From a virus (lineage: Duplodnaviria > Caudoviricetes), in the IMG/VR virus record IMGVR_UViG_3300014205_000003, positions 124,070 through 188,069 of that record: DNA of 64,000 nucleotides. One strand, given 5' to 3'. How positions within the stretch are numbered: the first letter of the stretch is position 1; every line of letters starts with the position of its first letter. Positions 17,798 through 62,163 of this stretch are shown one piece after another. The position numbers were made by a program, and so were the translations under genes. The notes beneath the pieces were generated by a model that saw only the letters and a list, made by a program, of their open reading frames with translations, was not told where the DNA came from and made no database searches.

Positions 17798-18258
17798 ATG
17801 AAACCAAACTTCTCAAAGATGTTCAATGGCTGGTGGATCGTTGAACACGGTAAAACTGACAGCAATAAGTATCCTGAGATTGTGTATCAGGTTCATGGGC
17901 CTTTCAGTACTCGTGAAGACGCTCGCAAAGAAGCTAAAGTCGTGAGAGATGAGGATCTCAGTAACTTCTCTTACGGTGCTTACTACACTGTTGTCAACGA
18001 CTTGATTATTGAAGGGTGGCGATAATGCGTATACTTGATTTGGAAAGTCCTAAAGGTTTTCCTTGGTGGATTGTTCAGTACTCAGAAGGGCAATTCCTCG
18101 AAACAGTCCACGGTCCTTACAAGACGCGAGAAGCTGCACGTGAAGAGTTGAATAGTTGTAAATCAGATGACGGGGAGTTCGTCTATACAGAAGACGGCGA
18201 AGAGAAGAAGTGTCAGTGGGCAATTATCAAAGATCTCTTCTTAACCTCAAAGGTGTGA
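17798..18258 (+). CDS. Two paralogs of the WWIV...HGP(Y/F).TR..AR family (17798-18025; about 18025-18258)
   Basis: Shared WWIV, HGP.xTRExAR and (K/N)DL motifs. Confidence 0.7.
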
Positions 18259-18259
18259 T

Positions 18260-18316
18260 ATGAAAGATGAACGCTGGATTATTGCAGTAAGCAATCCGAA
18301 AAACAAGTGGTGGATA
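18260..18316 (+). pseudogene. Orphan 5' fragment of a WWIV-family gene (MKDERWIIAVSNPKNKWWI), cut by TnpB cassette 1
   Basis: RBS plus ATG; family similarity ends at the cassette right end and the frame stops at 18326-18328. Confidence 0.7.
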
Positions 18317-18336
18317 GTTACCAACTAGATAGCTAG

Positions 18337-19392
18337 TCAGTTTGTCACGGAAGGGGGACTATAGGCTCCCCTCTGTCGGATGTTGATGGCCGCATTGAAG
18401 TCTGCATCCATCTTCATTCCACACGCGGTACAACAGAATGACTCTCCCTTTCGGGACAGTTTGTCTACCGCTCCGCACAAGCTACATGTCTGCGAAGTAA
18501 AGGCAGGATTAATCCTCGTAAGGGTTAGTCCTGCTTCTTCACAAACCATCTGAAGTTTGTCCAAAACTTTTGGATAGCTCCAGCGTTGTAACTTGTTGTT
18601 AAATTGCTTGCTAATCTCGCCTTTAGAACCCTTCTTCACATCCTTGAGATCTTCGACTACAAGTTCTTGAATGTTAGTAAGATCAATCAGCTTTACAGAC
18701 TGATTGATCTTTTGGTCACGTTCCTTCAATGCTCTTTTAAATGCTTTAGATCCTTGTTTCTTCCTAGCGATTTTCTCATAGACATTTTCCATGCCTACGT
18801 CGTAGGTTTTCTGATCGGAAGAAGCAAGGAGTTTCTTGTATCCACAATCAAGGCCTAAGAATGTTCCCTTCGATGTACTGGGAGTATCTTTCTCGAAGAA
18901 TACATCCAAGTACCACTTCCCATTGACTTTACGTAAGCAAGAGGACTTCTTAAGAAGCCAGCCGTGCTGACTGAACTTGAGAAATTGCTTGTGCTTACAT
19001 GAAGGGATCTTAAGATTTATCTTGTTTCCTAGACAAAAGAGTTTAATCCAGAAGTCGAAAGAATTCTGCTTAGTAGAGAAAGTACAGATAAGTTCCGTGA
19101 GATTAAAAGTTTTTTGTTTGAGTACAGGCTTAGATGCTTTCTTTACTTTGTTCTTTCGAGCTCGTAGTTTCTTAAGTACGTCAAAGGCTTGAATGAAAAG
19201 ACATCTTTGAAGGCGAGCGGCGAGCCACGTTGGAATTGGAGGAAGTTGATCGAACTTTGTAGCAGAAGGATCTTTCCAGAAGTGCTCTACGTAGAGATTA
19301 AGTACTCTCAGGGCTTCCACACTGAAAGTATCAAGCTTTTGGAGCTTCCCGGCGTTTGCAAAGTTCAACGACATTTGTACTCTACGAATCAC
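18337..19392 (-). CDS. tnpB: TnpB (Cas12f-like) RNA-guided endonuclease
   Basis: RuvC-I GLDCG, RuvC-II VVEDL, Zn ribbon CSLC/CTAC, RuvC-III DADFNAAINI. Confidence 0.92.
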   Translation of the reverse strand: MIRRVQMSLNFANAGKLQKLDTFSVEALRVLNLYVEHFWKDPSATKFDQLPPIPTWLAARLQRCLFIQAFDVLKKLRARKNKVKKASKPVLKQKTFNLTELICTFSTKQNSFDFWIKLFCLGNKINLKIPSCKHKQFLKFSQHGWLLKKSSCLRKVNGKWYLDVFFEKDTPSTSKGTFLGLDCGYKKLLASSDQKTYDVGMENVYEKIARKKQGSKAFKRALKERDQKINQSVKLIDLTNIQELVVEDLKDVKKGSKGEISKQFNNKLQRWSYPKVLDKLQMVCEEAGLTLTRINPAFTSQTCSLCGAVDKLSRKGESFCCTACGMKMDADFNAAINIRQRGAYSPPSVTN

Positions 19393-19559
19393 TTAGAAGA
19401 TTCTCCTGCAAGAATGCTTTGGATAGATTCTACAGAAATCTTACGTTGCTTAGAAGGTGTCTTATACCCTTTAAGCTTCCCTTCATCAAACCATCTACGT
19501 ATGGAGTCAGGATGTACTCCCATCATCTTAGCTGCTTTAGTTAACGAGATATATTCCAT
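19389..19559 (-). CDS. 56-aa MerR/excisionase-like HTH protein (not in the ORF track)
   Basis: Manual translation MEYISLTKAAKMMGVHPDSIRRWFDEGKLKGYKTPSKQRKISVESIQSILAGESSK; AAAGGA RBS; GTGA overlap with tnpB. Confidence 0.85.
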   Translation of the reverse strand: MEYISLTKAAKMMGVHPDSIRRWFDEGKLKGYKTPSKQRKISVESIQSILAGESSK

Positions 19560-19608
19560 TTTGCTGTTCCTTTCTCATTAATACTAATATAGCATAAGGA
19601 TTTTTATT

Positions 19609-20133
19609 ATGGGAACTAAATGTGCGATGTGCTGTGAGTCTGCTCCTTCGGACAAGTGGTGGGTTCTTCTGTCTTTCAAGCCTAAGAAAATGCCTCGTTA
19701 CCCGTACTTTGATAGCATTCATGGTCCTTATCCAACACGTAAGGAAGCACGAGTAGCTGCAAAGAAGATTAGAGAGAACAGCAGTGAGAGTTCAATCAAA
19801 CTCTCTTACTCTGTTGGAAGAAATCTAGTCATATCCTGTGTCTTCTAACCAATGAAAGTACGAGGATTAATGCAGAATTACTATCTGGAACATCCTGACA
19901 AACTCCCTTGGTGGGTCATCTGCTATAAGAACTATGAAGCCGAGAATAAAGACCTACATGATGGGGACTTTTTCAAGGACGCTCAACTGTATAGACTCCA
20001 TGGTCCTTACATGTCTCGATCGGCAGCGAGATCCTACCTTGAGATTTTGAAAAATAATGACATTTACGATTTTGGTGAGATCGGTCTTCGTTGGAAGATT
20101 GTAAAAGATCTCTGCGTATCCTGTAATCCCTAA
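19609..20133 (+). CDS. Two further WWV...HGPY family paralogs (19609-19848; 19852-20133)
   Basis: KWWVL...HGPYPTRKEAR; PWWVI...HGPYMSRSAAR. Confidence 0.7.
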
Positions 20134-23253: not shown

Positions 23254-23793
23254 ATGTCCGTTTCAAGTATGCCTGAGTACAAATCTCTCTTTGATCTATC
23301 TCAGCAGTCAATCTCCTCAAAGTGCACATCTGTGCACTCTCTCCCCACAACCTTCAAGAAAGTTCTCTGGGCTCCGCACAGCTGGAACCTTGACTTAGGT
23401 GGTGGTCAGTACGAAGATGCTTCTATCTATCTGCAGAAACGTTTTGTATCCAACTTTGTATATGATCCGTTTAACAGGTCGGATGAACACAACGAACGCA
23501 TTCGAGCATACATCATAAGTAGTTCGTTTGATACAGTAACATGTTGTAATGTTTTGAACGTTATTAAGGAAGCAAAGATTCGACATACAGTCATAGAACA
23601 GGCGTACAAAGCATTGAAGCTCGGAGGGGTAGCCTACTTTCAGATCTATGAGGGAGACCGCTCTCAGAGGCAAGGAAAGACTTCTAAGGGCTATCAGTTG
23701 AACTGGTGGACGTCTTCTTATGTATCAGAAATCACTAAGGTCTTTCACGGACTATGTAATGAGTACGCTAATACTCTAGTAGTAAGGAAATAA
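23254..23793 (+). CDS. SAM-dependent methyltransferase-like protein
   Basis: NLDLGGG, YDPFN, FDTVTCCNVLNVI, LKLGGVAYFQIYEG. Confidence 0.8.
   Translation: MSVSSMPEYKSLFDLSQQSISSKCTSVHSLPTTFKKVLWAPHSWNLDLGGGQYEDASIYLQKRFVSNFVYDPFNRSDEHNERIRAYIISSSFDTVTCCNVLNVIKEAKIRHTVIEQAYKALKLGGVAYFQIYEGDRSQRQGKTSKGYQLNWWTSSYVSEITKVFHGLCNEYANTLVVRK
23324..23335. repeat. Palindrome copy 4 (inside CDS; 8-bp arms)
   Basis: agtGCACATCTGTGCact. Confidence 0.85.
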
Positions 23794-23825
23794 CCTAGGT
23801 AGGTATTTTATCTTGTTGCTAATCC

Positions 23826-23842
23826 TATGCTATATTAGTATT
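23826..23842 (+). promoter_or_regulatory. Putative extended -10 promoter of the HTH-tnpB operon
   Basis: TATGCTATATTAGTATT, identical on the minus strand upstream of the cassette 1 HTH (about 19580-19596). Confidence 0.6.
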
Positions 23843-23863
23843 CAATAGAAAGGCTAGGTTATA

Positions 23864-24031
23864 ATGGAATACACATCCGTTAGTAAGGCCGCTAAGATGA
23901 TGGGAGTTCATCCAGACTCAATACGCCGGTGGTTCGACGAAGGGAAACTTAAAGGATACTTGACTCCGTCAAATCAACGTAAGATCTCTGTTGAGTCAAT
24001 TAAGGTTCTTACAGGAGAATCTCCTAAGTGA
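23864..24031 (+). CDS. 55-aa MerR/excisionase-like HTH protein (not in the ORF track)
   Basis: MEYTSVSKAAKMMGVHPDSIRRWFDEGKLKGYLTPSNQRKISVESIKVLTGESPK; GTGA overlap with tnpB. Confidence 0.85.
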   Translation: MEYTSVSKAAKMMGVHPDSIRRWFDEGKLKGYLTPSNQRKISVESIKVLTGESPK

Positions 24032-25341
24032 TAAGAACGACTCGTCACAAACTAACTGATAGTAACGCCCTGAAGCAACAAAGGTTACTTTATGTTTTGA
24101 CTGAGAGTAAGAACGTTGCACAAACGTACTTAGACTATTTGTGGACGTATGGTTGTACTTGGCAAACTAAAGATAGTTTGGGCGCTGGTATCCTACACAC
24201 CCTAGACATATCAAGGAATCTTTTTGAACATCCGTCTATGCTGTCAAACGTAGATTTAGAAAACAGCATTCAGGGATTCTCATCGGCCTTATCGGCGCGT
24301 CTGAAGAAGTGTATACTTACTCAAGTCTTAGGGATAGTTGGAGCATCTATAGAGAAGCAGAAGAAGCGTTTGTGGCAGCTTAACAAAAGCATAACAGAAG
24401 GAAAGTCTTGCAAGCAACTGCTCAAGAAAATCGGACAGAATGCTCCTGTTAAACCAGATCTTTCTAACTTCTCATTAGAACTAAACACACTTTGTGTTGA
24501 CCTCCGACGTTTACAAAACTCGCCGTTCGACTATTTTGTGCAACTTAAATGCTTGGGAAAAGGTATTCCTTCCATTCGTCTTCCCATTAAGTTGCACAGA
24601 GCTGATAGGAAGTTTCAATCCTGGAGAATGCTTACCAGTTTTCTGATTTCAGAGAACGAAATACAGATACGATATGAAAAAGAGACACCGCCAAAGCTTG
24701 AACAGGGCTCGGTAGTAGGTGCCGATCAAGGTTTGAAAACAACCATAACCTTCTCTACAGGCTCTATCACTCCAGCAACAGACCCTCACGGTCATTCCCT
24801 AGAAGACGTCACTCATAAATTGTCTAGACGACGCAAAGGCTCCAAGGGCTTTAAAAGAGCTCAAGACCATCGAAAGAACTTAATCAACTTTCAGATCAAA
24901 CAACTGAACTTAACTGGCATCAAACAAATCAATCTAGAGAAGGTCTGGAACATTGGTTACAAGACTCGTAAAAGTCGATACTTGTCGCATTGGTGTAATA
25001 CACTCATCCGAGACAGACTGATCCAAGCTGGAGAAGAACAAGGGGTCCTTGTGAAACTTCAGCCATCAGTCTACAGAAGTCAGAGATGCAGTGCATGTGG
25101 GTTGGTACGAAAAGCCAATCGAAAAGGAAAGGAGTACAAATGCCTTTGTGGCTTTCATCTAGATGCAGATCTGAATGCTAGTCTCAATCATGTAGTTGAA
25201 CTCCCTGAGATTTCGTTTGACTTTCGTAAGTTGAATCTAAACAGAAAGGGTTTCTATTGGAAACCTGAAGGTCTGTTTGATTTAACTGGTAGGGAGTTTG
25301 CAGTCCCCTATTCCTCACAAGAAACTGACTCTAAGTTGTAA
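24028..25341 (+). CDS. tnpB: TnpB (Cas12f-like) RNA-guided endonuclease
   Basis: GADQG, INLEKV, SQRCSACG/CLCG, DADLNASLN. Confidence 0.9.
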   Translation: MIRTTRHKLTDSNALKQQRLLYVLTESKNVAQTYLDYLWTYGCTWQTKDSLGAGILHTLDISRNLFEHPSMLSNVDLENSIQGFSSALSARLKKCILTQVLGIVGASIEKQKKRLWQLNKSITEGKSCKQLLKKIGQNAPVKPDLSNFSLELNTLCVDLRRLQNSPFDYFVQLKCLGKGIPSIRLPIKLHRADRKFQSWRMLTSFLISENEIQIRYEKETPPKLEQGSVVGADQGLKTTITFSTGSITPATDPHGHSLEDVTHKLSRRRKGSKGFKRAQDHRKNLINFQIKQLNLTGIKQINLEKVWNIGYKTRKSRYLSHWCNTLIRDRLIQAGEEQGVLVKLQPSVYRSQRCSACGLVRKANRKGKEYKCLCGFHLDADLNASLNHVVELPEISFDFRKLNLNRKGFYWKPEGLFDLTGREFAVPYSSQETDSKL

Positions 25342-25360
25342 ATGCTTAGATTTCAGTAAC

Positions 25361-25640
25361 TGTCAAAGCAGGAACTGATACTGTCACATGCTGCAACGTA
25401 TTGAATGTGATAAAAGAGCCTGACGTGCGTCGAAAGGTCATAGAACAGGCCTACAAGGCTTTGAAGATGCGTGGGGTAGCGTACTTCCAGATCTACGAGG
25501 GAGACGTCTCCAGCAGGCCCTGCAAGACCACCAAAGGTTTCCAGATGAACTGCAGAGCTAGTAGCTACATTCGCGAGTTCCATGACGTGTTTCATGGCTG
25601 TGTTAATCAATACTCAAATATTCTAGTAATGAGGAAATAA
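25361..25640 (+). pseudogene. Orphan 3' half of the methyltransferase (diverged second copy)
   Basis: DTVTCCNVLNVIKE...VIEQAYKALK..GVAYFQIYEGD...N.LV.RK aligns with the C-terminal half of 23254-23793; no RBS or start. Confidence 0.85.
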
Positions 25641-25642
25641 GT

Positions 25643-26497
25643 ATGACAGTTGCAAAGATTTACCCAAACAACGATTCTGCTTGTCCTGTCTGTAAAGGTC
25701 CGACAGTCCTTACAGAACTTACATGTCGGCACAAGAAAGCGCTCACATTTGTTCTAAGCTGTAAGAATCACAAGTATTGCTACGAGTGTTCTAGCTCGAG
25801 TGTCTCTACACTTGCTAGTGCGCTCTCAGCGACATACAGCGCTATGAATACACCTCCTCGTATGCAGACTGGATTTCCTACGTGCCCTCGCTGTGGTAAA
25901 CAGTTTATTGAGGTTACGCATGACAGCAACAACTACGACTTCAAGTGTCCAGAGTGCAACTTGTGGAAGATGGCTCCTACATATGCAGAACTCGAACTGC
26001 AGTTGGAAGAGATAGACGCCGATTGTAAGGATTACGACAAGTCTATGGGACGGGCTAACAACATACGAGTCCAGAACGTGGTGAAAGAGAACGAGGAGCG
26101 ATTCAACAACATGCCAACGAATTCTACAGAACTCTCCGACGAGGAGAAAGAGAAGCTCCTTAAGGAAATGAAAGAGACAGGTAAGGGAATCAAATTCGAT
26201 CAGGAAAAGCTTAAGTACTCCCTCCTACCTTGGGATGCTGTTAAAGAGGTTGTGAAAGTACTGATGATTGGTGCACGCAAGTACTCAGCTTCAAATTGGG
26301 TAGTGGTTCCCGGAGCCTCTGGAGGCACTGGTCGATACGCTAACGCGGCTATGCGACACCTTGTTTCCTATATGTCAGGAGAGAAGAATGACCCAGAGAC
26401 AAAACTGTCACATTTAGCGCATTGTGCGTGCTGCATTCTTTTTCTGCTTGCTTATGATCTTAGAGGCATTGTATCTAAACCAGAGGAATCCAAGTAA
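25643..26497 (+). CDS. Zinc-ribbon repeats fused to a dATP/dGTP diphosphohydrolase (DUF5664-like) domain
   Basis: GIKFDQEKLKYSLLP...GARKYS..NW...AAMRHL...DPET.LSHLAH; several CxxC pairs at the N-terminus. Confidence 0.8.
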   Translation: MTVAKIYPNNDSACPVCKGPTVLTELTCRHKKALTFVLSCKNHKYCYECSSSSVSTLASALSATYSAMNTPPRMQTGFPTCPRCGKQFIEVTHDSNNYDFKCPECNLWKMAPTYAELELQLEEIDADCKDYDKSMGRANNIRVQNVVKENEERFNNMPTNSTELSDEEKEKLLKEMKETGKGIKFDQEKLKYSLLPWDAVKEVVKVLMIGARKYSASNWVVVPGASGGTGRYANAAMRHLVSYMSGEKNDPETKLSHLAHCACCILFLLAYDLRGIVSKPEESK

Positions 26498-30632: not shown

Positions 30633-32868
30633 ATGCTACTCAACGCGGCTCGTACTACTGTTTGGAACTGGGACAATGTCACTTCTTCACTCTGCCCTGA
30701 CTGCGGCGAAAAGCTTATGGCTCGTCGCTGTGAAGACAAGATCTGGCACTGGGCTCATTACCCTCTCCCTAAAGGTGCAACCCCTCGTGCATGTCATGCA
30801 GAAGAGACTGCTTGGCGCTTGCAGTGGAAGTTTGCACAGATGTGCAATGATGGCTGGGAGATCGAGAAGCGTGTAGAGCTTGAAGGTAAGATTACTGTTT
30901 TGGATGCTTACAATGCTGAACAGAATCAAGTAACTATCTTCGTTCACAGCACTTCACCTAAGTCCCTCGAACGATTCGAACGTCTCAAGCGCAGTTCCTA
31001 CAACTGCTACTGGATCAACTAAGGTCCCTTTGTCTGGTAACAGGCATTGAAAAGAAAGTGAATTGCTGGGACACCTAAAGTGCACATCTGTGCGCCATGG
31101 CAATCAGCAGCCGACCTCTTAATAGACCCTAGTGGCCTCTAAGAGAAGGTTCAACGACTAGTCCGTAAGGACGTAGGGTCAAGCGGCCCGAAGCACTCTC
31201 TCCTGAGCAATTAGGAGAATGATATAGCCTTTGCCACAGTGAAAATTGTGGGAGTCCTGATTAACCATCAGCAAACCGGCAGTACTTAGCGAGTACTGTT
31301 GAAAACAACTATACGAAGTAGAAATTTCGTTTTGTTTCTCAAGTAGTTTACAAATTCTGATTTGATGTATTATAATAATCCATATGCAGCGTTCACATAA
31401 AATTCGATTAGATCCTACAGTCAAGCAAGAAGTCGCAATGCGACAAGCTGCTGGAACTGCGAGATTTACTTGGAATTACGCGCTGGCTATGTGGAAAAAG
31501 CAATACGACGATTTTAAGCTAGGGCTGGCGACTAAACCAGATGTCTACAGTATCTCCAGACGTTGGACACAAGAAAAACCAGATTGGGCTCGAGAAGTTG
31601 CATGCGGTCTTCAGAACCGTGCAATTATGACTCTCGGAAAAGCTATGATCAGTTTTTGGAACGGGAAGACAAATTTCCCGAAATTCCATAAGAAGTCTGA
31701 CAAGTCTTCTTTCTATGTGGCTAATAGTCATGGTTATATCAAAGATGGCCGGATACACATTACGAATGTTGGAAAAGTAAAACTAGCAGAAGCTCCCCGT
31801 TTTGAGGGGCGAACGCTGTGTTATACTGTTTCTCATTCTGCAGGTAAATGGTTTGTGTCTGTTCAAGTAGAATTGACAGAACCTATTGTACCTAATCCGT
31901 CCTTGTCTGTAGTTGGTGTAGACGTCGGGATTAAGAACATTGCAGTTGCAAGCGATGGCACTTCGTTGCCAAATCCTCATTTTCTTATCAAGCAACAACG
32001 ACAGTTGAAATACTATCAACGTCAATTAGCGCGACAAGTAAAAGGATCAAATCGCCGCAATGCAACGAAAACCCGTATTGCAAAGATCCATCAGAAGATT
32101 GTAAATCAACGTCAGGACTGTGTCCACAAGTTCACTACAGCTCTTGCCAAAAACCACGGCACTGCAGTGATCGAAACACTGGACATCGAGAGTATGAAAA
32201 GTTCAGACAAGGTCTGGATGAATCGTGCTCTCCAAGACACCTGCATGCGCGAGGTCCACAGGCAACTGGAGTACAAGATGAGGGAGCTCGTAAAAGCTCC
32301 TAAGTTCTTCCCCAGCTCCAAGACCTGCTCGTCATGTGGAGATGTCAAAGAGTCCTTGCCACCCTCTATTAGGGTGTACAGATGTCAGTGTGGCTTAGAG
32401 ATCGACCGCGATCTCAACGCTGCACTGAACTTGAGAAACAGGAGTTGGGTAACAACTTCTACATGCGTGGAGACCTCTAAAGGGTCTACGAAGCGCAAAA
32501 CGAAACTCGTTGCCGCTAGGTAACGAACCTCGTATTACAGCTATGACGGAAAGGCCCTTGGCTCTGCTCGTACACGTCGATGCATGTGGGATGATACGTT
32601 GAAGAAGTACATGTTGTATCAACGCATGTTGAAGCCTGCTGCTATGGGTCTCTACAAGGCTACAGGAGGCGCTGTACATCGCTATGAGGGTCTGTACCAC
32701 TGTAAGGACGTGAATCCCTATTATGGCTATGGAAAGGTTCGTGACATTACTCGTTGGACAGCGTTGGAAGGTCCGTTGACGCAGAAGGCTTTGGAGAACT
32801 TCCACAGTGCTCTGAGTCTGATGAACTTCCTTCGCAGGGATGATGAAAAGCCGCAGGTGAGTCCTTGA
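30633..32868 (+). CDS. CoiA-like zinc finger/nuclease protein, split: exon 1 30633-31015, exon 2 32541-32868 (236 aa spliced)
   Basis: CPDCG...HWAH...C..EETAW...W, IE, LD motifs; the join gives in-frame ...NCYW-I-YDGKAL... Confidence 0.7.
31016..31310 (+). ncRNA. Group I intron catalytic core (IA-like, with P7.1/P7.2)
   Basis: P1 GGAU/GUCC with U-G wobble; P AAUUGCUGGG 31061; Q AAUCAGCAG 31102; R GUUCAACGACUA 31149; S GAUAUAGCC 31221; GNRA-capped P2, P7.1, P8 and P9. Confidence 0.88.
31082..31093. repeat. Palindrome copy 5 (inside the intron P5 region)
   Basis: aaagtGCACATCTGTGCgcc. Confidence 0.85.
31347..31376 (+). promoter_or_regulatory. Putative sigma70-type promoter for the intron tnpB
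   Basis: TTTACA-N18-TATAAT just upstream of ATG 31384; no RBS, so probably a near-leaderless mRNA. Confidence 0.5.
31384..32523 (+). CDS. tnpB: TnpB (IS605/IS607 OrfB type)
   Basis: HKIRLDPT..Q...ARFTWN N-terminal HTH; GVDVG, IETL, SSKTCSSCG, DRDLNAALN. Confidence 0.93.
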   Translation: MQRSHKIRLDPTVKQEVAMRQAAGTARFTWNYALAMWKKQYDDFKLGLATKPDVYSISRRWTQEKPDWAREVACGLQNRAIMTLGKAMISFWNGKTNFPKFHKKSDKSSFYVANSHGYIKDGRIHITNVGKVKLAEAPRFEGRTLCYTVSHSAGKWFVSVQVELTEPIVPNPSLSVVGVDVGIKNIAVASDGTSLPNPHFLIKQQRQLKYYQRQLARQVKGSNRRNATKTRIAKIHQKIVNQRQDCVHKFTTALAKNHGTAVIETLDIESMKSSDKVWMNRALQDTCMREVHRQLEYKMRELVKAPKFFPSSKTCSSCGDVKESLPPSIRVYRCQCGLEIDRDLNAALNLRNRSWVTTSTCVETSKGSTKRKTKLVAAR

Positions 32869-60599: not shown

Positions 60600-60622
60600 A
60601 TGACTATAGTCAGAGTCAAATG
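60600..60622 (+). pseudogene. Orphan 5' fragment (MTIVRVK) of the zinc-finger gene now at 61979
   Basis: GAGTCAAATG at 60613-60622 is repeated at 61998-62007; both encode VRVK. Confidence 0.65.
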
Positions 60623-60644
60623 GTTGTAGCTAAGCGGGGCTTCT

Positions 60645-61721
60645 CTACTTTTGAGCTTGGGCGACCATAGACTGCCCAAAGGTTCCGAGGTGTTTAGCGA
60701 GAATGTTGCAAGCTCCGACGTAGTCGGCATCAGCAGAATGACCGCAGCTGATACAAGCAAACTTCTCTCCCTGTCTATTGTCTTTCGACACCGTGCCACA
60801 TGCAGGACAGCATCGCGAGGTATTGGCTGGATCTACGAACACAACGCGAACACCGTTCCGTTGTGCTTTGTACTCAATCCAGTTGATCGCCTGACGTACT
60901 GTCCACGGTGCCATAGCTTTACGAAATGCTTTTCCTCTGTTTTGTTGTTTTCCTTGTTTGATTCCTCTAAGGTCTTCTAGTACGATTGTCTGTAAGGACT
61001 TCCAAGGCAGTTGATTTACGGATTCTCGAATGTACTGATCACGATGCTTACGAGCTTGCAGGTTGCTCTTTGAGCCTTTCTTGGAAGTCTTTACAGCATC
61101 GCAAAGAGGCGAAACTATATTTCCTAGGAATTTTCCAGAAGATAGTGAGAGAAGTTTGTTCTTCCCTAGATCAATTCCCAGTACATCTCCTGTGCTCTTC
61201 GTCTCTTTATCTACCACGTCAACAAAGAGTGTAATTCTGTCAGAATACAAAGATGCACTAGATGAGAGGACAGCCCCAGGTTCTGCTAGAAGTTTGTTTA
61301 GGTGGGCGTGCTTTTTACACGGAAGTGCAAGCCTCTTCCCTTTCTTCAGATATGACACTTTGATCAAAAGATCAAATTCTTTTAGTGATGTTGTTTGTAC
61401 AACAGTACAGGTTAGTTCGGTAAGATCTACAGGACCATTGTATTTAGATGTTTTGTGTGATTTAGTTTTCTTGCTCAATTTCCTAGGAGTATTGTGAATA
61501 CTGAGCGCTTTCTTAAATGCAGAGCCTCTAAGATTAGCAGACAGCCTTGTCTCCGTAGGCGAAACGAGGCTTTGTGTTTTGGCGTCAAAGGAACCTCTTC
61601 CTTTAGGCAAACGTACAAGGTAGAGGTTCACAATACGACAATATTCAGTACGCAGATTCGCAACAGCTTTCTTCTTAGAGGCTGTTAAGAACTTCAATGA
61701 AATGTTTACAGAGAGTTGCAC
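60645..61721 (-). CDS. tnpB: TnpB (Cas12f-like) RNA-guided endonuclease
   Basis: GIDLG, VLEDL, TSRCCPACG/CISCG, DADYVGACNI. Confidence 0.92.
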   Translation of the reverse strand: MQLSVNISLKFLTASKKKAVANLRTEYCRIVNLYLVRLPKGRGSFDAKTQSLVSPTETRLSANLRGSAFKKALSIHNTPRKLSKKTKSHKTSKYNGPVDLTELTCTVVQTTSLKEFDLLIKVSYLKKGKRLALPCKKHAHLNKLLAEPGAVLSSSASLYSDRITLFVDVVDKETKSTGDVLGIDLGKNKLLSLSSGKFLGNIVSPLCDAVKTSKKGSKSNLQARKHRDQYIRESVNQLPWKSLQTIVLEDLRGIKQGKQQNRGKAFRKAMAPWTVRQAINWIEYKAQRNGVRVVFVDPANTSRCCPACGTVSKDNRQGEKFACISCGHSADADYVGACNILAKHLGTFGQSMVAQAQK

Positions 61722-61909
61722 GGGTTCTCTACTTTTGTCACGAACGCGGAGCTTTTTCCTGCAAGAGCTGTAATCGAATCCACAGAAACCTTACGCTGTT
61801 TAGAAGGAGTCCTGTAAGATTCTACAATCCCTTTATCAATCCAACGACGTAAAGTATCTCTGTGAACCCCTAGCATCTTAGCGGCTTTTCCTATTGACAT
61901 GTAGAGCAT
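61706..61909 (-). CDS. 67-aa MerR/excisionase-like HTH protein
   Basis: MLYMSIGKAAKMLGVHRDTLRRWIDKG..SYRTPSKQRKVS; AAAGGA RBS. Confidence 0.85.
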   Translation of the reverse strand: MLYMSIGKAAKMLGVHRDTLRRWIDKGIVESYRTPSKQRKVSVDSITALAGKSSAFVTKVENPCNSL

Positions 61910-61978
61910 GTTGCATATCCTTTCGTTATGATAAATACTACAGCACATGGTTTCAACAAATAAGGAGTCCGTTTACGT

Positions 61979-62143
61979 ATGACAAAGCAAACAGTACGAG
62001 TCAAATGCACTAAGTGCGATGGCGTAGGCTTCGTTAAGGTTGACAGCAAGCTTCGTGTTTGTCCTGTATGTCTTGGCAACAAAACCATTCGCTACGATAC
62101 AGAAGCCATCAAGAAGCCTCAACAGCTTCGCATCGACAACTAG
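61979..62143 (+). CDS. 54-aa zinc-finger protein (CxxCxGxG...CxxCxG; not in the ORF track)
   Basis: MTKQTVRVKCTKCDGVGFVKVDSKLRVCPVCLGNKTIRYD...; TAAGGAG RBS. Confidence 0.75.
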   Translation: MTKQTVRVKCTKCDGVGFVKVDSKLRVCPVCLGNKTIRYDTEAIKKPQQLRIDN

Positions 62144-62163
62144 CTGTCATCAAGTCTTTATCT

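Follow-up and report, generated by a model that had tools for sequence, protein, structure and literature searches.

A TnpB cassette inserted in a putative phage methyltransferase gene appears to act as a natural "home-and-rescue" homing element, that is, one that supplies a diverged replacement end for the gene in which it resides; we put the probability of this reading at about 0.6. The cassette lies in a 64,000-nucleotide (nt) stretch of DNA, hereafter the window, which corresponds to bases 124070-188069 of a 188,069-bp IMG/VR virus record (IMGVR_UViG_3300014205_000003). Coordinates are window positions unless they are marked as genome positions. The record bears direct terminal repeats and is rated complete. 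Eight tnpB genes, named E1 to E8 and belonging to at least four lineages, are present in its genome, most of them without a recognisable replacement gene piece ("cargo"); E1 is the cassette in the methyltransferase gene. According to the initial annotation of this region, the intact methyltransferase gene is a chimera whose 3′ part arrived with the element. The structure of E1 is real and well defined and its anatomy fits this model, which is a probable reading and the best explanation at hand.

The evidence begins with the methyltransferase gene, which encodes a protein of 179 amino acids (Table 1). The product has weak matches to Methyltransf_23 and Methyltransf_12 (23.8 bits for Methyltransf_23, with a cut-off of 27), the motifs LDLGGGQ and FD-x-V are visible in it, and many of its 120 database homologues of similar length carry PF13489. 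Its last 88-93 codons are present again downstream, up to 25640, the second copy starting at 25362 or 25376 by alignment and at 25364 by the right end of the element. The duplication of about 93 codons on either side of the genes for a helix-turn-helix (HTH) protein and TnpB, already noticed in the initial annotation, was confirmed by tblastx, which aligned 23515-23793 with 25362-25640 at 64.5% identity over 93 amino acids (E 1.7e-38), and the three peptides quoted at that time are indeed common to both copies. We call the piece that completes the open reading frame (ORF) the cargo and the displaced piece the orphan. They are 69% identical over 267 nt by blastn and 64-68% identical in amino acids, and they align codon for codon with a constant offset of 1847 nt and zero indels. 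Moreover, the similarity stops exactly at the stop codons (TAA in the intact gene). Identity at codon positions 1, 2 and 3 is 0.72, 0.85 and 0.43, in agreement with the earlier remark that most changes are synonymous. Since synonymous divergence (dS) is saturated and non-synonymous divergence (dN) is 0.255, cargo and orphan are anciently separated alleles, both under purifying selection, and not the products of a recent duplication.

The orphan has no stops or frameshifts, as had been stated, its frame being open from 25350 to 25640, and it keeps 27 of the 39 family-conserved columns, compared with 28 in the intact copy. The "recent" arrival proposed earlier finds support in this preservation only, whereas the two copies themselves diverged long ago. 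In-frame starts in the orphan lack a good Shine-Dalgarno sequence, with a weak AAGG before ATG 25467 as the sole exception; independent translation, for example from this ATG (57 amino acids without the S-adenosylmethionine-binding half), would thus have no ATG with a good Shine-Dalgarno sequence to start from.

Position 25364 is homologous to 23517, and when 23517-25363 is removed, 5′ part and orphan fuse in frame into a 179-codon ORF that reads ...RAYIIKAGTDTVTCCN... across the junction. The first residues of the orphan, K-A-G, fit the family consensus (K/E, G, G, A). In the intact gene, residues 89-92 are SSSF, which is almost never seen in 119 homologues (consensus x-G-G-A). The fact that the cargo is off-consensus just opposite the predicted guide while the orphan is on-consensus supports the cargo as the arriving half. 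On the downstream side, the ATG of the next gene lies 2 nt past the orphan stop and its GAGGA Shine-Dalgarno sequence lies inside the last codons of the orphan, a tight packing from which the orphan is recognised as the copy that still has its original operon surroundings. No second methyltransferase paralogue was found elsewhere in the genome.

We then considered the cassette located between the two copies. Its left end, at about 23824 and 30 nt past the methyltransferase stop, is where similarity to the corresponding modules of E5 (90% over 207 nt), E4 (78%) and E2 (70%) starts, the upstream sequences being unrelated. The HTH protein matches positions 2-46 of the 187 positions of the NCBIfam model transpos_IS607 (E 1.8e-6), as well as HTH_17/MerR, and shares 41% identity with the N-terminus of the Resolvase-type TnpA that adjoins a related tnpB in locus L017; it may act as a repressor or bind the element ends. 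TnpB itself is apparently active, judging from its conserved residues: the triad D233, E304 and D381 and the zinc-finger cysteines C354/C357/C372/C374, which are invariant in 119 relatives, are all present, and so are all 56 columns conserved at 95% or more in these relatives. It also matches solved TnpB/Cas12f chains in an alignment that covers the catalytic E and D. Among more than 1000 TnpB homologues, the nearest is 60% identical and lies beside a Resolvase TnpA; in the relatives P0122, L017, L018 and P0129, all on phage-like contigs, tnpB stands directly behind a Resolvase TnpA gene of 189-194 amino acids. By sequence, the element belongs to the IS607 lineage, and the catalytic half of its transposase is gone. 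The absence of the TnpA catalytic domain here, together with the full Resolvase TnpA of the relatives, indicates that mobility cannot be transposase-driven in cis.

As for the HTH module, the E1 copy (23824-24032) and that of E5 (genome 102330-102540) are 90% identical in nucleotides, whereas the adjoining TnpB proteins are only 26% identical in amino acids, and the similarity stops within 5 nt of the tnpB start. Such a pattern suggests that unrelated cassettes of the same genome have swapped modules or undergone gene conversion. An origin of the cassette by recombination within the HTH module would be compatible with such an exchange, a point that we raise as speculation.

The omega-RNA overlaps the 3′ end of tnpB and terminates at the right end of the element. 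An alignment of six sequences yields a consensus of 27 pairs, with 93% of cells paired and compensatory changes in 12 pairs; none of 500 shuffles reached the observed value, and slid controls gave at most 2. No Rfam omega-RNA family, RAGATH-18 included, matched between 23000 and 26000 at the gathering score or at E<=5. The right end, AACTGT, is common to E1 and the related loci L014-L018 (six elements), usually within AGTAACTGT or CTAACTGT, and the sequences diverge completely after it; in the E3-E5 subfamily the right end is GTAACTAT. The E1 element thus terminates in TGT and has no GG terminus. Placing its end at the GG of 25371-25372, as the GG-terminus rule of IS607 would have it (PMC13565253), was ruled out, given that the six elements share AACTGT and diverge immediately after. 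Around this end, 25347-25365 and 25644-25662 form a 19-nt inverted repeat, 74% complementary, which includes AACTGTCA/TGACAGTT and may be due to chance.

Because the conserved AACTGT stops at 25363, the guide is taken to start at 25364, the first base of the orphan, with an ambiguity of 2-3 nt since the terminal GT could belong to the target. The segment 25364-25383 is therefore the predicted guide. The initial annotation had placed it at 25361-25380, a stretch that aligns with 23514-23533 as described, whereas the AACTGT end makes a start 3 nt later the most likely one. Only 1 of the first 12 guide nt is identical to the intact gene, which is the lowest value of 263 windows and also of 88 four-codon windows, and 7 of the next 8 nt are identical. 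A 16-nt guide is unique in the 188-kb genome. The first 12 nt (CAAAGCAGGAAC) are copied exactly at genome position 98259, on the minus strand, where they are preceded by AAAGGAAG and the sequences diverge beyond 12 nt; about 0.02 exact 12-nt matches are expected by chance in the genome, and this copy is nevertheless probably a chance one.

We propose the following scenario for E1. An IS607-derived cassette, made of a promoter, the HTH gene, tnpB and the omega-RNA, occupies a site inside the methyltransferase gene, its left side carrying a long-diverged allele of the last ~92 codons that completes the ORF. The original last ~92 codons would have been pushed downstream, and their first 16-20 nt would be transcribed as the guide. 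The 5′ part would constitute the left homology arm, with the target-adjacent motif (TAM) in its last bases. Upon co-infection with a phage bearing the uninterrupted allele (TAM followed by CAAAGCAGGAACTGAT...), the TnpB-omegaRNA complex would cut that allele, and homologous recombination, with the 5′ part and the orphan serving as arms, would mend the break and thereby copy cargo and cassette. The carrier would be immune, as 11 of the first 12 guide positions are mismatched in the cargo and what precedes the orphan is the end of the element, not a TAM. The methyltransferase gene would remain functional, and consequently the cost of the element to the phage would be low. In this scenario, the orphan would offer perfect homology to the right of the expected cut, so that repair copies the cassette; without it, repair might use the 69%-identical cargo, in which case the gene would be converted and the element not transferred. 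A dual role as guide template and homology arm would account for the retention of the orphan, which may be under selection in the latter role.

The same logic is found at two other cassettes of the genome, E4 and E7. The right-end flank of E4 starts with CCACCACTTGT, an exact 11-nt repeat of which is found 52-63 nt upstream of the left end, and that of E7 starts with CATTTGACTC, repeated exactly over 10 nt at 46-56 nt upstream of the left end. In both cases the exact match begins at base 1 of the flank and precedes a homologous replacement for the 5′ end of the gene, while the 5′ gene end that was displaced, ATG included, is found past the right end. At E4, this displaced piece consists of 18 codons (MKDERW...NKWW, ATG 18260, plus strand) that run into the right end, and the N-terminus of the intact gene at 19609 (79 amino acids) is homologous to it but not the same (MGTK...DKWW). 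At E7, seven codons (MTIVRVK, ATG 60600) run into the right end, and the intact 54-amino-acid zinc-ribbon-like gene at 61979 starts with MTKQTVRVKC and has its own AAGGAG. The occurrence of the same design three times, at E1, E4 and E7 and with three tnpB lineages, speaks against a single accident and against an origin from tandem paralogues. The surroundings of E4 are themselves repetitive, this cassette being located in a tandem array of three small paralogues (18016-18258, 19609-19848 and 19852-20133) that share WW and HGPY motifs.

Table 1. Features of the methyltransferase locus and of other tnpB cassettes in the window
Feature	Position	Strand	Remarks
Methyltransferase ORF	23254-23793	+	179 codons, intact
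Methyltransferase 5′ part	23254..23516	+	codons 1 to 88, second base; C-ending codons (C3) 0.30
Replacement 3′ part (cargo)	23517..23793	+	completes the ORF, ends exactly at the stop codon
HTH module, left end	23824..23863	+	extended -10-like TGCTATATT at 23828-23836
HTH protein	23864..24031	+	55 amino acids; N-terminal DNA-binding domain of IS607 serine transposase, without catalytic domain
tnpB	24028..25341	+	437 amino acids; Pfam PF07282 Cas12f1-like_TNB, E 1.3e-11
omega-RNA scaffold	25229..25363	+	three helices (25229-25312), then tail with AACTGT (25358-25363)
Predicted guide	25364..25383	+	first ~16-20 nt of the orphan, starts CAAAGCAGGAACTGAT
Displaced 3′ part (orphan)	25364..25640	+	open, undecayed, without convincing start
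Downstream gene	25643..26497	+	dATP/dGTP diphosphohydrolase-like; Pfam dGTP_diPhyd_N, E 1e-27; PHROG 801
E4 cassette	18313-19602 plus cargo (18260-20133 overall)	-	HTH-tnpB
E7 cassette	60600-62145	-	same layout as E4
E8 tnpB	31384-32523		unrelated to the other tnpB genes of the genome

Several observations weigh against the home-and-rescue scenario. At E4 and E7 the cargo is identical to the first 10-11 guide bases, with mismatches only after them, and recoding of the seed is therefore no general rule. No clear cargo/orphan pair was found at E2 and E5 in the same genome, nor in the five related tnpB loci L014-L018. At E1, the earlier claim that the copies are most divergent over the guide holds for its first 12 nt, but in windows of 16 and 20 nt the guide region is low without being the minimum, 23706-23725 being equally or more divergent. 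The bases before 23517, ACATCAT, are unlike the AGGAG/GAGGG TAMs of IS607 TnpBs (PMC13565253), and a TAM could not be derived from the related loci, where left ends are undefined. The lack of an Rfam omega-RNA match at E1 points in the same direction. Finally, a degenerate DNA pattern for DTVTCCNVLNVIKE retrieved no uninterrupted allele or empty site from IMG/VR and the JGI metagenomes. Scans of IMG/VR, for which the methyltransferase and the TnpBs of E1 and E4 served as queries, gave no empty site and nothing closer than 39-51%, and protein searches with the whole methyltransferase and with the orphan alone gave no uninterrupted near allele, the nearest being 51% identical. Likewise, no close relative of the phage was found by blastn and tblastn against phage records or in the IMG/VR scans. 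As neither an uninterrupted allele nor a close phage relative was found, neither the target nor the direction of the exchange has been observed.

The exchange could indeed have gone the other way, the whole intact gene being native and the element having come with the orphan of a donor, perhaps with downstream genes too, by illegitimate recombination after the resident stop. The composition of third codon positions bears on both histories. The GC content at these positions (GC3) is 0.48 in the 5′ part, 0.42 in the cargo, 0.59-0.60 in the orphan, 0.42 in the HTH gene and 0.41 in tnpB, and it is 0.46 +/- 0.07 in 174 phage ORFs; in the genome-wide ranking the cargo is typical (36th percentile) and the orphan atypical (95th percentile). 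Moreover, at the 29 synonymous differences between the two pieces the orphan has the phage-preferred codon at only 11. Both results agree with a native intact gene, and so does the absence of a significant breakpoint within it: an unguided change-point scan of C-ending codons (C3) set the best split after codon 87, at the predicted junction, but the permutation p was 0.29, and the change-point of GC3 falls elsewhere, with no break at the junction. Thus the shift in codon style that had been seen by eye midway through the intact gene corresponds to a C3 drop at the junction but is not borne out statistically. The C-ending "phage style" ascribed to the orphan was mistaken, because the phage prefers T-ending codons (third positions T 0.335, C 0.228) and the orphan is the atypical copy. 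The GC3 and codon-usage plot proposed as a check yields no significant compositional breakpoint, and genome-wide usage points slightly in the opposite direction. The reversed history accounts poorly for other features. C-ending codons make up 0.30 of the 5′ part, which resembles the orphan (0.345) and not the cargo (about 0.16-0.17); by Fisher tests, p is 0.05 for 5′ part vs cargo (an a-priori comparison), 0.015 for orphan vs cargo and 0.63 for 5′ part vs orphan. In addition, the best C3 split falls exactly at the junction, an off-consensus SSSF just opposite the guide is not predicted for a purely native gene, and the next gene is packed against the orphan, not the cargo. We therefore consider an arrival of the orphan with the element unlikely. 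A codon-usage likelihood ratio between phage and tnpB genes was discarded, as the two distributions overlap (means 1.5 and -1.9, standard deviation 2.7) and cannot place a piece of 87 codons.

Phylogeny is neutral in this respect. The nearest methyltransferase homologue is 51% identical, each 3′ half is the best match of the other (68%), and no database protein is closer to the orphan than the cargo is. A split identity comparison gave equal correlations of the two 3′ halves with the 5′ half (0.21 vs 0.24). The separate phylogenies of the gene parts, suggested earlier as a check, thus show the 3′ halves to be each other's closest relatives and speak neither for nor against either direction.

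Two further histories would leave the anatomy as it is and dispense with homing or with cargo. The layout could be a relic, a frozen accident in which homing was lost because guide, TAM or partner alleles are gone and tnpB is kept for another role or only briefly. The target allele was indeed missing from IMG/VR, the JGI metagenomes and the protein searches, and most of the tnpB genes in this genome carry no recognisable cargo. However, the nuclease and the omega-RNA are fully conserved, the orphan is undecayed, the 16-nt guide is intact and unique, and E1 and E5 have HTH modules that are 90% identical next to TnpBs that are 26% identical, which argues for ongoing exchange among live elements; we find a relic less probable even than the reversed exchange. 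The least probable history is that of tandem paralogues, in which the element inserted in a second methyltransferase copy whose 5′ half was later deleted, so that the intact gene would not be chimeric and there would be no cargo. This phage does keep arrays of small paralogues, as seen around E4, and both copies are old and under purifying selection. On the other hand, such a history needs a deletion running exactly from ~30 nt past the first stop to the left end of the element, gives no reason for the lowest-identity window at the guide start, and calls for like coincidences twice more, the displaced pieces of E4 (18 codons) and E7 (7 codons) being short and each provided with an ATG of its own; nor does the genome hold another methyltransferase paralogue. 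An assembly artefact is unlikely as well, the longest exact match between the copies being ~14 nt, below typical assembly k-mer sizes, in a record with terminal repeats that is rated complete.

The home-and-rescue reading of E1 has parallels among elements that replace gene ends. In fungal mitochondria, mobile ORFs (mORFs) are known in atp6 of Allomyces macrogynus and in atp6, atp9, cox2 and nad3 of Glomus (PMC3630166). As in E1, a nuclease gene within a host gene brings a foreign C-terminal piece that completes the gene, and the native C-terminal piece is displaced downstream, where it stays as an unexpressed duplicate (PMC3630166). The inserted and native pieces are 64-81% identical in nucleotides there (PMC3630166) and 69% in E1. 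The nucleases of mORFs, encoded in organelle genomes, belong to the protein-guided LAGLIDADG or GIY-YIG types and are often in-frame fusions to the host gene, whereas that of E1 is a phage-borne, RNA-guided TnpB with a promoter of its own, and only in E1 would the displaced piece double as guide template. The WHO elements of the yeast FBA1 gene are homing elements too, every integration of which substitutes a new 3′ end in a conserved gene, and they rely on allele-specific cleavage and gene-conversion repair (PMC7282813). They differ from E1 in their intein-like protein endonuclease, their location in eukaryotic chromosomes and their arrays of old 3′ ends, where E1 has a single orphan and an RNA guide. 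E1 shares with both groups the gene-end-replacing layout, with a nuclease gene between an inserted end that completes the ORF and the displaced end.

With regard to its nuclease, E1 resembles the TnpB-omegaRNA systems of IS607 and IS605, in which tnpB and the omega-RNA overlap at the 3′ end of the gene and the right-end flank supplies the guide. By cutting the donor site when it is empty, TnpB is known to maintain these transposons where they are, and cleavage followed by recombination restores or spreads IS607/IS605 elements (10.1101/2023.03.14.532601; PMC13565253). Spread driven by TnpB independently of TnpA has been shown on plasmids in the form of a gene drive (PMC11870625). In a 2026 review, homing into co-infecting phages is still a theoretical matter and no form with cargo is described (PMC13565253), and our literature searches found no published TnpB element with a replacement gene end. 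E1 departs from IS607 by the absence of the TnpA catalytic domain (HTH only), of the GG terminus and of a match to RAGATH-18 or another Rfam family. Furthermore, IS607 and IS605 elements interrupt their target, whereas E1 carries a replacement gene segment. IStrons, which associate TnpB with a group I intron (PMC10690162, PMC4227781), are similar to E1 as RNA-guided elements inside a gene that are made harmless to the host. They repair the gene at the RNA level by splicing, whereas E1 would do so at the DNA level with a spare gene end. The design called HomeR reportedly combines an RNA-guided nuclease in a needed gene with a cleavage-resistant rescue copy of the disrupted part. HomeR is an engineered home-and-rescue CRISPR drive aimed at an essential gene (PMC7968924). 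It is synthetic, uses Cas9 and operates in diploid animals, and E1 would be its natural TnpB counterpart between co-infecting phages.

E1 is a concrete and testable case in which the transposase is gone and RNA-guided homing would be the only plausible route of spread, the element paying for its insertion with a spare gene end. It would join the gene-end-replacing homing elements of fungi and yeasts with the OMEGA nucleases, and be the natural equivalent of the rescue drives built by engineering. Its TnpB, which is compact and for which both the omega-RNA end and a candidate target are defined, is well suited to TAM determination. On a broader scale, and at odds that we place slightly below even, phages may harbour natural RNA-guided home-and-rescue drives, namely TnpA-free TnpB-omegaRNA cassettes that spread only between co-infecting genomes, in which a diverged piece of the target gene both rescues and immunises while the native piece is kept as guide source and homology arm. 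One genome would then hold three lineages (E1, E4 and E7) that evolved this design or arrived at it by convergence.

The tnpB complement of the genome is diverse. E2-E5 are 73-79% identical among themselves, E6 and E7 are 44% identical, the E1 TnpB is only 26-28% identical to E2-E5, and E8 is likewise without close kin in the genome. As for the methyltransferase, its closest viral relatives (IMG/VR contigs L009-L013) are 44-48% identical and occur as domains inside large open frames, whose length ranges from 1,660 to more than 2,800 residues and which also contain, by eye, helicase-like and other methyltransferase-like regions. This context hints that the stand-alone methyltransferase may serve counter-defence or nucleic-acid modification.

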